Part shown: positions 4,226 to 63,282 of the stretch, piece after piece
Layout of the letters: each line of letters starts with the position of its first letter
Numbering within the stretch: position 1 is the stretch's first letter
Sequence record: NC_054913.1
Direction: 5' to 3' (one strand)
From: Escherichia phage F2
Length of the DNA: 64,000 bases
Translations under genes and position numbers: made by a program
Notes under the pieces: generated by a model
What the model saw: the letters and a program-made list of their open reading frames with translations, nothing else
Databases searched by the model: none
What the model was told of the DNA's origin: nothing

Positions 4226-5334
4226 TAGAAAGTCCCCGCATAAAGTGAAGAACGGTTTAATGTAATAATTTCTCGCATTGTTATCTCTAACGTAAATGTT
4301 GACGGTAAGTTAGGAGCAACAGCAAGACCATTAAATTGTCCATTTGGAGTTTTATCAAAACGTACGCTTTGAATTTGGCATGGGCCAAATACGTCAGTTA
4401 ATCCATCAAATTTAGACGTATAACCAAAGTTTTTAACCATCCAAATTGTAGGGTTGCTTACAACTAATACGTTTGTTAATGACGCAGTAATCTTTTCAAA
4501 CAACGTCTTATTTTTTACTGCATCATCCGGCGTCATAGGCTCAATAAACGTTGAACGGTACCATTCGTCTAAATAACTTTTAATCTCTTGGGCGTACTGT
4601 GATTTACCGGTCTCACCATATGAGAAATAGTTAAAATACTGGTAAATGTTTATAATAGCCATAAGGTCTTCAGTTGAACGTGGAGTTAAATCCCATGTAA
4701 AGACTTTAGTACGGTTCTCAGCACCACCATACATACTACGAGAAGTCGTATAAATCTGTTCGTTATTATCAGCCATAAGCCCTTGAGTAATAGAATCTAA
4801 TGCACCAAAAACTGCAGTAGAAGCAATGTTACTTAAAACACCCGTAGCAGTACCTCCACCTTTAGTAATAAGGCTATCACCAACATCATTAAAACGATGT
4901 GAAGTTGTATCAACGTCAGATTTGGAACGCGGCAAAAGTATATTAGCAACAGGAGTTTTATTTATAGTAGGTTTATTAGCTCCGGCAGGAAGCAACCCAT
5001 TAGAGAATTTAGTCACTGCATCTTTCACATTATCAGTTAAATCTGATATGATACCATTAGATGAAGTGCCGGCGTATGCCGGACGTAAATTCCTGAGGGA
5101 TCCTGAATCGCGTGCAGACATATTGTACGCGGTAAATAATAATCCATTCTTATAAAGGTCTGTTACCTGGAAGTCTCCTGTGGAGTCATTTCCGGCTGCT
5201 CTTCCTGTAGGAAATTGAGCAACATAAGTTTTAGTAGTTGTTTCGGTTTTAGTGCTTTGCCCAGCACTTTCTGAGACTGGGATTGCTTTATTTAAATCCT
5301 TTGCATCTACTACTATTTCTTTTACACTAATCAT
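4225..5334 (-). CDS. 48: gp48 baseplate tail-tube junction protein, 369 aa
   Basis: Length and synteny with T4 gene 48. Confidence 0.85.
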   Translation of the reverse strand: MISVKEIVVDAKDLNKAIPVSESAGQSTKTETTTKTYVAQFPTGRAAGNDSTGDFQVTDLYKNGLLFTAYNMSARDSGSLRNLRPAYAGTSSNGIISDLTDNVKDAVTKFSNGLLPAGANKPTINKTPVANILLPRSKSDVDTTSHRFNDVGDSLITKGGGTATGVLSNIASTAVFGALDSITQGLMADNNEQIYTTSRSMYGGAENRTKVFTWDLTPRSTEDLMAIINIYQYFNYFSYGETGKSQYAQEIKSYLDEWYRSTFIEPMTPDDAVKNKTLFEKITASLTNVLVVSNPTIWMVKNFGYTSKFDGLTDVFGPCQIQSVRFDKTPNGQFNGLAVAPNLPSTFTLEITMREIITLNRSSLYAGTF

Positions 5335-8765: not shown

Positions 8766-9514
8766 TTTTTATGGTCCTTTTCTACTAATGTTAAAGCAAT
8801 ACCACGTTCAACAGGAATCATTTGCATAATAGAATCCAATGTGTATTGACTCTTTACTAGTGAATGGTTTATCTGATAGAATGTAAAAATCTCATCAGGG
8901 TTAACTAACAATTTAAAAACCTCTAAGATATCAGTATATGTTTTAACATGGCGTTCACAACAACCTAATCTAAGGGTCAAATTAATAGGGTTCATAGAAG
9001 CAATAACCTTCTCGAGAGAGTCAATGTCTATTGCTTCTATTACTTGGATTTGGTTCTCTTCAGTCAAATCATTCCATGGGTACCATTCATCATTATAATA
9101 TATTTCTTTTATGTTTTCACTTATCATTAATGCTTTATTGTCATAAAACTTTTCAGGGAAAGAAAAACGTATTTTTATACCAGCAACATCAAGTTCAGGT
9201 TCGACTAGTTCTTTTTGATATATCTCAAATGGTGCAGTTTTTTCTTTAGAGCATTTAGGGCAAGTGAAAATAACGGGAACTTTTGTTTTGCCTATAGAGC
9301 CTGCAAAAACTTGCAGGAATATAAATGGTTGCCATGTTTTAGGGTACTCGCCAAAATAATCATCAATCAGATCGGCAATTATTTCTTTTTGTTCTTGCGG
9401 CGAACGATGTTCGATATCATTTCTAACTAGTAAAAAGTCTCTATAATCCGCCACAGTGAACGGCTTAAAACGATGAACACCATCCGGTAATTTACAACGA
9501 ATTATATTAGCCAT
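8762..9514 (-). CDS. 51: gp51 baseplate hub assembly catalyst, 250 aa
   Basis: Length and synteny; divergent from gene 26. Confidence 0.85.
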
Positions 9515-26983: not shown

Positions 26984-29309
<2,326 letters not shown>

Positions 29310-54656: not shown

Positions 54657-55322
54657 ATGAGCATTTGTAAACATTGTAATATGGAATTTGATATTTCTAA
54701 TAAACCTAAAGGATGGATGGCTAACCACACTAGATGGTGTAAATCCAACCCTAAATTGGAATTGTATAAAGAAAGTTCTAAATCAGCCATTGCAGCAATG
54801 AATAAAGCACGTATAGCTTCAGGTAATTTAAACCAGTATGTTGTATCTAAAAAGACTGGTGTCCCTGTAGTAATTTCGGAAGAGACTAGACAAAAATTGT
54901 CAGCCGCTTCATTAGGTAGAGAACACTCTGAGGAATCTAGAATAAAAATATCTAATGCTCGGAAAAAATGGTTGAATGAAAACCCTGATAAACATCCTTG
55001 GAAGAAAAATACAAAATTTAAATCTGTGCCTTGTGAATTTTTGAAATCTAAATTAATAGAAAACGGAATTTCATTTATTGAAGAATACCAACCGGTTAAA
55101 AACCGAGCGTATTGCACGGATATTGCTTTAATAGATAAAAAGATTATTATTGAAGTTAATGGAAACCAACATTACTCCAATCCTAAGAAAAAGATTTTGG
55201 CCCCTTATTATAAAGAACGCCATGATATTATAAAATCATTAGGATGGGAAATATATGAACTTCATTATGCTGAAGTTTATAAAGAAGATATTGTAAATAA
55301 TTTAATTGCCTCTATAGTGTAA
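54657..55322 (+). CDS. free-standing endonuclease, non-GIY-YIG: N-terminal Cys/His cluster, NUMOD3-like repeats, C-terminal PD-(D/E)xK-like (Vsr/DUF559-type) domain; 221 aa
   Basis: CKHC...HTRWC; repeats SEETRQKLSAASLG and SEESRIKISNARKKW; C-terminal IIIEVNGNQH...KERHDIIKSLGWEIYEL; lies between tRNA-Asn and tRNA-Arg, last 5 codons overlap tRNA-Arg. Confidence 0.6.
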   Translation: MSICKHCNMEFDISNKPKGWMANHTRWCKSNPKLELYKESSKSAIAAMNKARIASGNLNQYVVSKKTGVPVVISEETRQKLSAASLGREHSEESRIKISNARKKWLNENPDKHPWKKNTKFKSVPCEFLKSKLIENGISFIEEYQPVKNRAYCTDIALIDKKIIIEVNGNQHYSNPKKKILAPYYKERHDIIKSLGWEIYELHYAEVYKEDIVNNLIASIV

Positions 55323-55383
55323 TGGATAGCATATAATCGTTCTAAGGTTAATGGTGAGAGTTCAAATCTTTCTAGAGGCACCA
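55308..55383 (+). tRNA. tRNA-Arg (UCU), CCA encoded
   Basis: Manual cloverleaf: acceptor GCCTCTA/TAGAGGC, anticodon loop GTTCTAA, T arm GAGAG-TTCAAAT-CTTTC, ACCA 3' end; T4 also encodes tRNA-Arg(UCU). Confidence 0.75.
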
Positions 55384-60670: not shown

Positions 60671-61144
60671 ATGAAAACATATCAAGAATTTATTACTGAA
60701 GCAGCTATTAATTCTCAAATTATTGCTGAATCTTTTACTGATCTTTTGAAATTTAAAAAAGGACAGAAAATTACTGCTGTATTAGATGATGGTACAGAAG
60801 TTGAGATGGATGTACAGGGATATAATTATGCAGTAGATGGAAAACTGTATAATAAATCTCATGCTAAATTTGATTCATTTGATGATTTTGTTAATACAGT
60901 TGAAGATGAAAAAACTCGTCGATCCATTGCAACTGGTGATGCTAAGGTTCTTATGGCGCATGGGCATGAACGTATTCGCGCTAAACAGAATAAAATGGGT
61001 GAAGATAATTTCGCATTAGTTGGTTATCAATCTGGTAAACAAACTTATGGTTATCAGCGTACTGCTACCATGTATAATAAAAATGGTAAAATCGCTTTCG
61101 TGAATAGTAAAGGTTCTATTCAGTACGTTAAATCGTTCAAATAA
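60671..61144 (+). CDS. internal protein with capsid-targeting leader (IpII/IpIII-class variant), 157 aa
   Basis: N-terminus MKTYQEFITEA matches the T4 capsid-targeting sequence; position next to e as for T4 ipIII/ipII; length differs from T4 IpII (100 aa) and IpIII (194 aa). Confidence 0.7.
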   Translation: MKTYQEFITEAAINSQIIAESFTDLLKFKKGQKITAVLDDGTEVEMDVQGYNYAVDGKLYNKSHAKFDSFDDFVNTVEDEKTRRSIATGDAKVLMAHGHERIRAKQNKMGEDNFALVGYQSGKQTYGYQRTATMYNKNGKIAFVNSKGSIQYVKSFK

Positions 61145-61201
61145 CATGGGAACAACCTGGACCTCATGATTCTGTGAGGGATTCCCGCCAACCTGTAATA
61201 A

Positions 61202-61223
61202 GGTCGAGCCCAAGTGCGGTAAT
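61202..61223 (+). pseudogene. tRNA 3'-end remnant (T arm plus acceptor) related to tRNA-Asn
   Basis: ggtcgagcccaagtgcggtaat versus ggttcgagtccaagtgcgccagtaat at 54561-54586; no matching 5' half upstream. Confidence 0.45.
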
Positions 61224-61285
61224 GGGTAAATACAGAAATGGACAATTCATGCGCCATGGAATGGCCCAAATTTAGAGAGAATAAA

Positions 61286-61828
61286 ATGAGAACATTTTTA
61301 ACTGGTCCTTATCTATCCCTGATGAATGCTTTTACACACCATTCTGATGCTAGAGTAGAAGAAATTTGTAATAGTGGATTTTATGTACCTGATTCGTCGC
61401 ATTTATTTAAAGAATATTGTACACTTCGTTTAGATGGTGGCAGACAATCTGGTAAATCAACTGCAGTAACTAATTTTGCCGCTAATTGGTTGTATGATGG
61501 TGGAACAGTTATTGTTCTTTCTAATACTTCAGCTTACGCTAAAATTTCTGCGGGCCGCATTAAAAAAGAATTTTCTCGTTATTCTAGCGATGATATTCGA
61601 TTCCGTTTATTTACTGATTCTGTCCGTAGTTTTGTTGGTAATAGAGGTAGCAAGTTCAGAGGTTTATCGCTTTCTCGAATTTTGTATATAATCGATGAGC
61701 CTGTTAAATCTCCTGATATGGATAAAATTTACGATATTCATATTGAAACTGTGCACCACTGTTGCAATAGTAAATGCTGCATTGGTGGTATTACTCGTCC
61801 TCAATTTTTTGTGATTGGAATGCAATGA
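61286..61828 (+). CDS. P-loop NTPase-like hypothetical protein with C-terminal Cys cluster, 180 aa
   Basis: Walker A GGRQSGKST, Walker B-like ILYIIDEP, HHCCNSKCC; start set at the ATG at 61286. Confidence 0.5.
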   Translation: MRTFLTGPYLSLMNAFTHHSDARVEEICNSGFYVPDSSHLFKEYCTLRLDGGRQSGKSTAVTNFAANWLYDGGTVIVLSNTSAYAKISAGRIKKEFSRYSSDDIRFRLFTDSVRSFVGNRGSKFRGLSLSRILYIIDEPVKSPDMDKIYDIHIETVHHCCNSKCCIGGITRPQFFVIGMQ

Positions 61829-62133
61829 TGACCACTATTGAAGTTTTTGAGTATTGTTATAACAGTCCAGTATGCAATAAAAGGGCTCTTGTAGAAAATT
61901 ACGAGATTTACCATTTTAAACCTAAACGATATCGTTTGACTAAAGGTCCATTCGCAGGTCAGCAGGTTCTTTGTACTGCTCCTAATGCACGGCTAATGAA
62001 TAAAATTCCATATTTTACCATGGAATTTATTGATGGACCTTTTAAAGGATTAATTACGCAAAGTTTAATGGCATATGATTCTGAGCCATTTTTAATTAAA
62101 GAACAATCTTGGATAAATTTATTTTCTAATTGA
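61825..62133 (+). CDS. hypothetical protein, 102 aa
   Basis: ATGATG start overlapping the upstream gene; no motif recognised. Confidence 0.5.
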
Positions 62134-62503: not shown

Positions 62504-62727
62504 TGGCTAAATTGATTATAGAAGGGTCCGAAGATGTTTTAAAATGTTTTGCCGCCTGGTTTAGTTGCTCAGGCGAGCAATCATTCATTGAAGCATTTAG
62601 AACGGGTGATATTACTGGAAAATATCCGACAACTGATATCACTGTACGCGGATATGGTATTAATGAGCCTATCCAATTGGTTGAATATGACCTTGCCACC
62701 GATGAGGAAATTCCTTATGTCGATTGA
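62503..62727 (+). CDS. hypothetical protein, 74 aa
   Basis: TAATG overlap with the upstream gene. Confidence 0.5.
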   Translation: MAKLIIEGSEDVLKCFAAWFSCSGEQSFIEAFRTGDITGKYPTTDITVRGYGINEPIQLVEYDLATDEEIPYVD

Positions 62728-62983
62728 AGACATCAAAGGCTACAAGCCACATACCGATGATAAAATCAGTAAAGTGAACGCTATTAAAGACGCAGAAGTC
62801 CGTCTTGGATTGATGTTTGATGCTCTGATTGAAGAAGCATATATCTTGAAAGAAAATGAATCAGAGCAACAAACCAAAGAAGATATGGATGCAGTGCAGG
62901 CTCTTAAGTATGCTAAGCAACATCTAAAAGAAGCCAGCATGTGGGCATGCCGTGCGGTATTTCGACCAGAGGAAAAATACTAA
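62717..62983 (+). CDS. hypothetical protein, 88 aa
   Basis: ATG at 62717 with GAGGAA RBS; the ORF track extends upstream in frame. Confidence 0.5.
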
Positions 62984-63282
62984 TGGCTCAAATCCTATCA
63001 GGCTTTGGAACTCATTATGAAGCATCTCGACGCATAACTGAAAGCAATCCTTTTGGCCTTGTTCCGAAGCACAAGAAAATTCAAAGCCTTGATGACTTTG
63101 AGAATCGCCTATGGGCCCTCTTTAATGAGTACAAGGCATATCTGAAAGAAGACGCTGACGATTGTCTTGAAGAAGATGAGATTGCGTATTACGAACAACG
63201 CCTTGAACAGCTCAAGAACTTCCACCAGGTTCGTGACGAAGTATCTAAAGCAGTTAAAAAGTTAATTCCTTTCAAAGAGTAG
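62983..63282 (+). CDS. hypothetical protein, 99 aa
   Basis: TAATG overlap; acidic helical protein. Confidence 0.5.

Follow-up and report, generated by a model that had tools for sequence, protein, structure and literature searches.

The large terminase gp17 (TerL) of T4 is encoded in the late packaging operon and is a protein of 611 aa, in which the ATPase core forms the N-terminal subdomain I. A second T4 protein, Vs.8, has been brought into connection with it through work on immune sensing. In an AlphaFold 3 screen that set T4 proteins against EcAvs2, a sensor of terminases, vs.8 was described as terminase-ATPase-like and as toxic together with EcAvs2, and Vs.8 was modelled inside the Avs2 terminase pocket with a bridging ATP (Evans et al. 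2026, PMC13601566). Ksap1 and Ksap2 are non-terminase activators of Avs2, and activators of this kind were suggested to be anti-defence proteins that Avs2 may have learned to recognise (PMC13601566). By their description Ksap1 and Ksap2 resemble Vs.8, as they are small phage proteins, built of a central beta-sheet flanked by helices, with a predicted position in the terminase pocket of Avs2, but they are confined to other phage taxa and it is vs.8 that has recognisable Walker motifs (PMC13601566). The products Vs.3 to Vs.8 have also been tested singly against type IV Thoeris, with the genes expressed from 'the promoter of vs.8'. Vs.3 alone worked and is TadIV-1, a sponge against this system, and Vs.8 gave no inhibition (PMC13243611).

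We examined an ORF in a stretch of 64 000 nucleotides from Escherichia phage F2 (sequence record NC_054913.1), referred to here as the window, which is a segment of a T4-like (Tequatrovirus) genome. The Vs.8 family and its TerL-like nature are already described, and the window adds one more ortholog. The RNA leader of the gene is a more novel lead than the protein, and the pairing of vs.8 with vs.7 is also worth following up.

Identification of the gene and its start codon

The ORF (Table 1) is a real gene, as its product matches the PHROG profile phrog_1488 ('unknown function') over residues 3–180 of 180 (E=5.3e-78), has tblastn matches in 1008 phage records and is 88% identical to T4 Vs.8 (NP_049732) across all 180 residues (BLASTP, E=3e-122). 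Gene vs.8 occupies the corresponding place in the T4 reference, and the ORF is almost certainly an ortholog of T4 vs.8 with a TerL-like ASCE ATPase domain. A preliminary description, made from the letters of the window, had delimited the ORF exactly and had correctly set it apart from T4 thymidine kinase (Tk) and DenV. It left the function unassigned, which still stands, and failed to recognise the product of a named T4 gene; the T4 homolog is clear, and vs.8 is itself no characterised enzyme.

Table 1. Coordinates of features at the vs.8 locus in the window
Feature	Position	Strand	Remarks
Internal protein DUF7412 / phrog_3155	60671..61144	+	flanked by lysozyme e and the vs.8 leader
Pseudoknotted RNA element, vs.8 leader	61148..61267	+	120 nt, GC-rich
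RNA element P1	61148-52/61182-86	+	5 bp
RNA element pseudoknot strands	5' 61156-60, 3' 61232-36	+
RNA element hairpin	61162-79	+	inside P1, variable
RNA element P2	61187-89/61225-27	+	3 bp
RNA element invariant core	61192-61219	+	28 nt, CCUGURRNAAGGUCGAGCCNAAGNGCGG
RNA element 3' extension	61237-61267	+	T4-like phages
Shine-Dalgarno-like GAGAG	61275..61279	+	6 nt 5' of the vs.8 ATG; read from sequence
vs.8 ortholog CDS	61286..61828	+	180 aa, ATG 61286 to TGA 61826-61828
Walker A / P-loop GGRQSGKST	61436..61462	+	residues 51-59
F124-R125-G126	61655..61663	+	R125 and G126 invariant; 12 residues before Walker B
Walker B ILYIIDEP	61679..61702	+	residues 132-139; catalytic Glu E138
Cys cluster HHCCNSKCC	61754..61780	+	residues 157-165; lineage-specific
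vs.7 ortholog CDS	61825..62133	+	102 aa; start overlaps the vs.8 stop (ATGA, 61825-61828)
vs.4 ortholog	62720-62983	+	64% identity to T4 vs.4
vs.3 ortholog	62983-63282	+	59% identity to T4 vs.3

The records that carry vs.8 belong mostly to Escherichia, Klebsiella, Shigella, Enterobacter, Yersinia and Salmonella phages, and the family is near-universal, rather than patchy, in the enterobacterial Tevenvirinae. Vs.8 is approximately 40% identical in Moonvirus, Karamvirus, Dhakavirus and Klebsiella phages, where the gene order is kept. One round of exhaustive profile searching against 1.84 billion representatives found 55 relatives, all of 93–259 aa.

A longer reading of vs.8 from an ATG at 61238 is possible. 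The start at 61286 is supported by the GAGAG upstream of it, by the divergent homologs, all of which begin at a Met aligned with this position, and by the presence upstream of a conserved non-coding element in which the frame differs. In a comparison of T4 with the window, the DNA 5' of vs.8 is conserved as nucleotides and not as a reading frame, with an 8-nt indel 5' of the Met and a stop in the window. The T4 record (NC_000866) annotates vs.8 as 219 aa with a GTG start. The 40-aa N-terminal extension that this gives (NC_000866 4794–4913, minus strand, equivalent to 61174–61275 in the window) overlaps the RNA element described below and is probably an annotation artefact, since in the window the equivalent stretch is out of frame with vs.8 and runs into a stop. 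The true start of T4 vs.8 is probably the Met that aligns with 61286.

Conserved residues in the Vs.8 family

Conservation was assessed in an alignment of 24 Vs.8 homologs, down to 41% identity. The segment D50-G-G-R-Q-S-G-K57 is invariant, and Walker A is also kept in the wider family. Further invariant positions are R114, R125-G126, I135, E138, K147, Y149, G178 and Q180, while I136, D137, P139 and F174-F175-V176 are conserved in at least 90% of the homologs. Walker B falls on a strand (E132-137) of the structure model. The two Walker motifs and the Cys-rich segment that follows them had all been reported, and each is found as given (Table 1). As both Walker motifs show little or no variation in the 24 homologs and in the wider family, and were not lost on alignment, the description of a small P-loop NTPase-like protein is borne out.

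The Arg-Gly ahead of Walker B occupies the place of the 'VRG' of gp17, and R125 is a candidate arginine finger that would be supplied by a neighbouring subunit. The Cys cluster, which had been put forward as a feature of the C-terminus, fared less well. It is missing from the homologs in Yersinia, Klebsiella, Enterobacter and Salmonella phages, and in homologs other than close relatives its place is taken by WPSMLG, YACV, CSSF or similar. Residues 162–168 are the sole stretch with pLDDT <50 in the Vs.8 model, and the lone profile match of the cluster is to a conotoxin, below the Pfam threshold. The cluster is a red herring, confined to close relatives.

A set of remote relatives (P0058, P0063, P0068, P0069, P0071–P0073 and P0075–P0078) was retrieved with E values from 1e-9 to 1e-3. 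In these the Walker A Lys is replaced by His (xRxSGH[ST]) and the catalytic Glu is lost, and they may represent a non-catalytic sister family of Vs.8.

Relationship to large terminases and other ASCE ATPases

Vs.8 is terminase-like, and is a stand-alone minimal form of the ATPase core of the large terminase (TerL/gp17 type) made up of one ASCE/RecA-like domain. Within the window, the pattern RQxGK[ST] is found only in vs.8 and in gp17 (SRQLGKT), which is encoded at 26987..28822 on the other strand. The Walker motifs of the two proteins, SRQLGKT and MIYIDE in gp17 and GGRQSGKS and LYIIDE in Vs.8, have the same form, and when the sequences were read side by side FRGLSLSRILYIIDE in Vs.8 was seen to parallel a segment of gp17. 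A PHROG terminase profile matches Vs.8 with E=1.9e-6, and some GenBank records name Vs.8 homologs 'large terminase subunit'.

Other searches returned less. The match to Pfam PF03237 (Terminase_6N) reaches 15.1 bits where the cut-off is 22 (E=0.018), and it covers residues 51–99 alone. The Pfam search gave sub-threshold matches only, and those to AAA_14, Terminase_6N and AAA_30 stem from the P-loop. An hhalign comparison of Vs.8 with the gp17 of the window aligned the P-loop alone, with a probability of 15%, and BLASTP aligned nothing beyond it, which argues that vs.8 is not a recent duplicate of the gp17 gene. In one exhaustive round against the 1.84 billion representatives, no protein of TerL length was reached, and no significant match was found when PDB chains were searched with the Vs.8 family profile. 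At the level of sequence, the link between Vs.8 and TerL is weak and remote.

The Vs.8 model resembles the gp17 ATPase domain and solved TerL structures, and the top structural matches are the RecA1 domains of helicases and the ATPase domains of terminases, with KaiC also listed. The Foldseek matches in the PDB are weak and of a generic ASCE kind (TM about 0.45–0.5), and the RecA1 domains of SF2 helicases score as well as TerL. The resemblance to the helicases is at the level of the fold: SF2 helicases such as DDX1, Mfd and RIG-I have two tandem RecA domains and motifs I–VI, whereas Vs.8 has a single domain and shares only Walker A and B with them. Profile and structure searches, which had been recommended, led to the phrog_1488 family and to helicase RecA1 and terminase ATPase folds as the best matches.

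Vs.8 ends at residue 180, directly after the fifth core strand and approximately where the TerL coupling motif would sit. It follows that Vs.8 is without the lid and nuclease domains of TerL and without the second RecA domain of helicases. Compared to gp17, the approximately 180 aa of Vs.8 do not include the N-terminal region, the lid subdomain II or the RNase H-like nuclease domain. The location also differs, as gp17 is part of the late packaging operon and vs.8 of an early-gene block.

Gene neighbourhood and pairing with vs.7

The order vs.8-vs.7-vs.6-vs.5-vs.4-vs.3-regB is conserved between the window and T4. Identities to T4 are 71% for vs.7, 94% for vs.6, 64% for vs.4, 59% for vs.3 and 75% for regB, and vs.5 is also present. 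The gene had been placed in a variable stretch, but synteny with T4 extends from vs.8 through to regB, and the difference is confined to the upstream part, with ipII, ipIII and denV. Upstream of vs.8, T4 has ipIII-ipII-denV and the window has one internal protein gene instead (Table 1). T4 ipII matches weakly (31% identity) at the start of this DUF7412 protein, and ipIII and the UV-repair gene denV are absent from the whole 64-kb window. In Moonvirus, Karamvirus, Dhakavirus and Klebsiella phages the order is e / IP / denV, then vs.8, vs.7 and onwards to regB.

The overlap of the vs.8 stop and the vs.7 start in ATGA indicates that vs.7 is translationally coupled to vs.8. A vs.7 homolog was found 3' of vs.8 in all 29 T4-like loci with downstream DNA, even in those without vs.6, and the tblastn alignments of vs.8 and vs.7 abut in 20 of the 29. 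The constant pairing, together with the abutting, is the signature of a two-protein module. The fold of Vs.7 gave weak SH3/KOW-like matches.

Further downstream, vs.4 and vs.3 are co-oriented with vs.8 and the stop codon of vs.4 overlaps the start codon of vs.3. Gene vs.4 encodes Acb2, an anti-CBASS sponge, and with TadIV-1 the block includes two nucleotide sponges of proven anti-defence activity.

Possible roles of Vs.8

The role that we favour builds on the terminase likeness. Vs.8 would bind Mg-ATP in a TerL-like active site, and hydrolysis would probably require an oligomer or a partner such as Vs.7. Vs.8 would act early in infection as a look-alike of the terminase ATPase and engage TerL-directed immune sensors or host factors, as an accessory counter-defence protein or decoy, and some sensors, EcAvs2 for example, would in turn read it as a trigger. 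Taken jointly, the identity of the protein and a role as an ATP-binding accessory protein at the phage–host defence interface seem to us evenly poised between right and wrong. The decoy or counter-defence mechanism of a terminase-ATPase look-alike, considered alone, is a tentative proposal that we think more probably wrong than right. Vs.8 has a complete and strongly conserved TerL-type nucleotide site within a single domain, heads a block that includes two counter-defence sponges and pairs with Vs.7. Against this mechanism, the sole known phenotype of Vs.8, the activation of EcAvs2, harms the phage, Vs.8 gave no inhibition of type IV Thoeris, the sequence link to TerL is weak, SF2 helicase RecA1 domains match the fold as well as TerL does, and an invariant catalytic Glu exceeds what a passive decoy needs. 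The family is also near-universal in the enterobacterial Tevenvirinae, and a counter-defence gene would usually be patchier.

The same two properties, the invariant Glu and the near-universal presence in enterobacterial Tevenvirinae, somewhat favour the explanation that survives best among the alternatives. Vs.8 would then be a true small oligomeric ATPase that works with Vs.7 on a DNA, RNA or nucleoprotein target early in infection, for example in remodelling or loading, and would resemble TerL only through common ancestry. We consider this unlikely, though still a serious competitor to the look-alike.

It is improbable that Vs.8 modulates the packaging motor of the phage itself, as a paralog of the TerL ATPase that mixes or competes with gp17/gp16, for example by restraining premature terminase activity. 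The TerL-type P-loop, the gp17-like arrangement of Arg-Gly and Walker B, the structural similarity to the gp17 ATPase domain and the 'large terminase subunit' label would all fit such a role, but vs.8 is in an early-gene block far from genes 16 and 17, there is no significant similarity to gp17 past the P-loop, and Vs.8 stops short of the gp17 regions that follow the ATPase core, the nuclease domain among them. A nucleotide or nucleoside kinase, for which assays had been proposed, or an NTPase that binds metal through the Cys cluster, is very improbable, since despite a P-loop, a size near that of small kinases and a Cys-rich segment that could bind metal, Vs.8 has an ASCE/RecA-like fold in which a catalytic Glu follows Walker B, and no kinase was among the Pfam and PHROG matches or the structure matches listed (ASCE helicase, terminase, KaiC).

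With its identification as vs.8, what had been an orphan P-loop protein becomes a member of a family tied to terminase-sensing immunity (Avs2; PMC13601566). The complete catalytic site, the constant pairing with Vs.7 and the position at the head of a block that includes anti-defence sponges sharpen the questions to be asked, namely whether Vs.8 works as a decoy or as an enzyme, whether it partners with Vs.7 and which sensors of the host it encounters.

A conserved pseudoknotted RNA in the vs.8 leader

The leader of vs.8 had been taken for a tRNA remnant. ARAGORN finds only a tRNA-Arg at 55308–55383 in the window, and there is no match to the Rfam tRNA family (RF00005) at E up to 1 in 60900–61500. 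What is found instead is a conserved pseudoknotted RNA, and 61148–61267 is likely to be an undescribed structured RNA. No Rfam 15 family matched at the element at E up to 1, either in the window or in the copies from four further loci (L004, L005, L007 and L009), and no paper was found when the literature was searched by the sequence of the element or by keyword. The T4 RNAs rnaC and rnaD were considered and are unrelated to the element.

The architecture was derived from 31 distinct real copies. P1 (5 bp) is followed by 3 nt, the 5' strand of the pseudoknot (5 nt), a variable loop or hairpin and the 3' strand of P1. P2 (3 bp) then opens, and is followed by NA, the core, UAA.., the 3' strand of P2, 0–9 nt and the 3' strand of the pseudoknot. 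The stems vary in sequence between copies. For P1 the variants include GGGAA/UUCCC, GGGAG/CUCCC, AAAGC/GCUUU, AAAGG/CCUUU, GAGGG/CCCUC, GAAUG/CAUUC, GAGUG/CACUC and GGAAC/GUUCC, and for P2, where they are likewise complementary, UGG/CCA, CCC/GGG, GCG/CGC, ACC/GGU, ACU/AGU and GCC/GGC. The pseudoknot is represented, for example, by CCUGG/UCAGG, ACACG/UGUGU, UCCGG/CCGGA, CCAGC/GCUGG and GCGGA/UCCGU.

In an alignment hand-fitted to the proposed structure, with N padding, 89.3% of the cells are paired compared to 60.8% after shuffling, and all 13 pairs have changed on both sides. The covariation score in the same hand-fitted alignment is 0.784, against 0.221 +/- 0.023 for shuffled alignments, and none of 500 shuffles reached 0.784. 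When the 3' partners were slid by 1–3 columns, the score was 0.21 or less. RNAalifold, applied to an automatic MAFFT alignment of 11 copies, recovered P1 and P2 with compensatory changes and proposes the core as an extended hairpin, CUGUA/UGCGG around GGU-CGA-GCC. The G.U pairs in P2 and in the pseudoknot place the element on the gene-sense strand. The single-sequence folding z-score of the leader is +0.49, which is uninformative because the leader contains a pseudoknot. A GCCC/GGGU hairpin inside the core had been considered and was given up for P2 after further variants were found.

The element is nearly identical in T4 although the preceding gene differs. It is also better conserved than the neighbouring Vs.8, as ACCTGTAATAAGGTCGAGCCCAAGTGCGGTAA persists where Vs.8 is only about 40% identical.

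Distribution and possible function of the RNA element

The element was detected by blastn in 1116 phage records, among them Vequintavirus (rV5-like) phages, a 45-kb phage and about-46-kb phages, which are without vs.8. An exact-pattern scan found it in 24 IMG/VR contigs, and a scan of the same type gave no match in 185 579 species genomes of bacteria and archaea. It was also not found by blastn in any of 5426 complete E. coli genomes. A metagenome scan with an 18-base core pattern yielded mostly chance or coding matches in high-GC soil contigs, and approximately 20 genuine copies.

In the T4-like phages the element lies directly 5' of vs.8. An exception is one locus (L022), where a gene resembling an internal protein gene lies between them. 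A scan for sigma-70 promoters and terminators around the leader revealed no convincing conserved promoter in the gap. In phages unrelated to T4, namely the about-46-kb phages (L013, L017, L023 and L027) and the rV5-like phages (L007, phage nimi), the element is 250–570 nt upstream of tRNA clusters and on the same strand. The rV5-like phages have a promoter-like TTGACA-17-TAAAAT between the element and the next gene, and there it is therefore not simply a 5' UTR. Reading by eye, we found complementary flanks, GUUGUGAC ... GUCACAAC, around the element in the 46-kb contigs. These could close a long processing stem around it and point to a small RNA that is processed and stable. The complementary flanks in the 46-kb contigs also read GTTGTGAC ... 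GTCACAAC.

The element may belong to an undescribed pseudoknotted class common to virulent enterobacterial phages that are not related to one another (T4-like, rV5-like and about-46-kb), acting either as a cis-regulator or as a stand-alone processed small RNA, and we rate this possibility at a little short of even. One candidate function is that of a small stable RNA, released by processing, with a conserved host factor as its binding partner. A second candidate is a cis-regulator (riboswitch-like) or stabiliser of the vs.8-vs.3 counter-defence operon, which in the T-even phages the element heads and which encodes the TerL-like Vs.8, Acb2 and TadIV-1.

A ribozyme is a third candidate. The order of the strands (P1 5', pseudoknot 5', hairpin, P1 3', a second hairpin domain and pseudoknot 3') resembles that of HDV-like ribozymes, with their nested double pseudoknot. 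The conservation is reversed compared to HDV-like ribozymes, as here the invariant 28-nt core is in the second hairpin domain and the hairpin within P1 is variable. Unlike those ribozymes, the element is without a conserved G.U at the base of P1, and it has no Rfam HDV-like match. If real, the element would represent a new class of phage RNA, concealed until now within a stretch that is annotated as coding in the best-studied phage.

In the T4-like phages, the 3' extension includes two GGA motifs in contexts that resemble hairpin loops. The contexts are AAUGGAC and CCAUGGAAUGG, with ACAUGGAUG in other phages, and we presume a resemblance to CsrA binding sites.

Two tandem copies of the element were found in Karamvirus-like contigs (about 5000–5314 (-) in L021 and about 8957–9260 (+) in L025). 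In the second copy the core is shortened and diverged (CCTGTAATAAGGTCAGCCCGCGGCGG). This copy keeps P1 (AAAGG/CCTTT) and P2 (CCC/GGG) and has new pseudoknot pairs, ACCA/TGGT.
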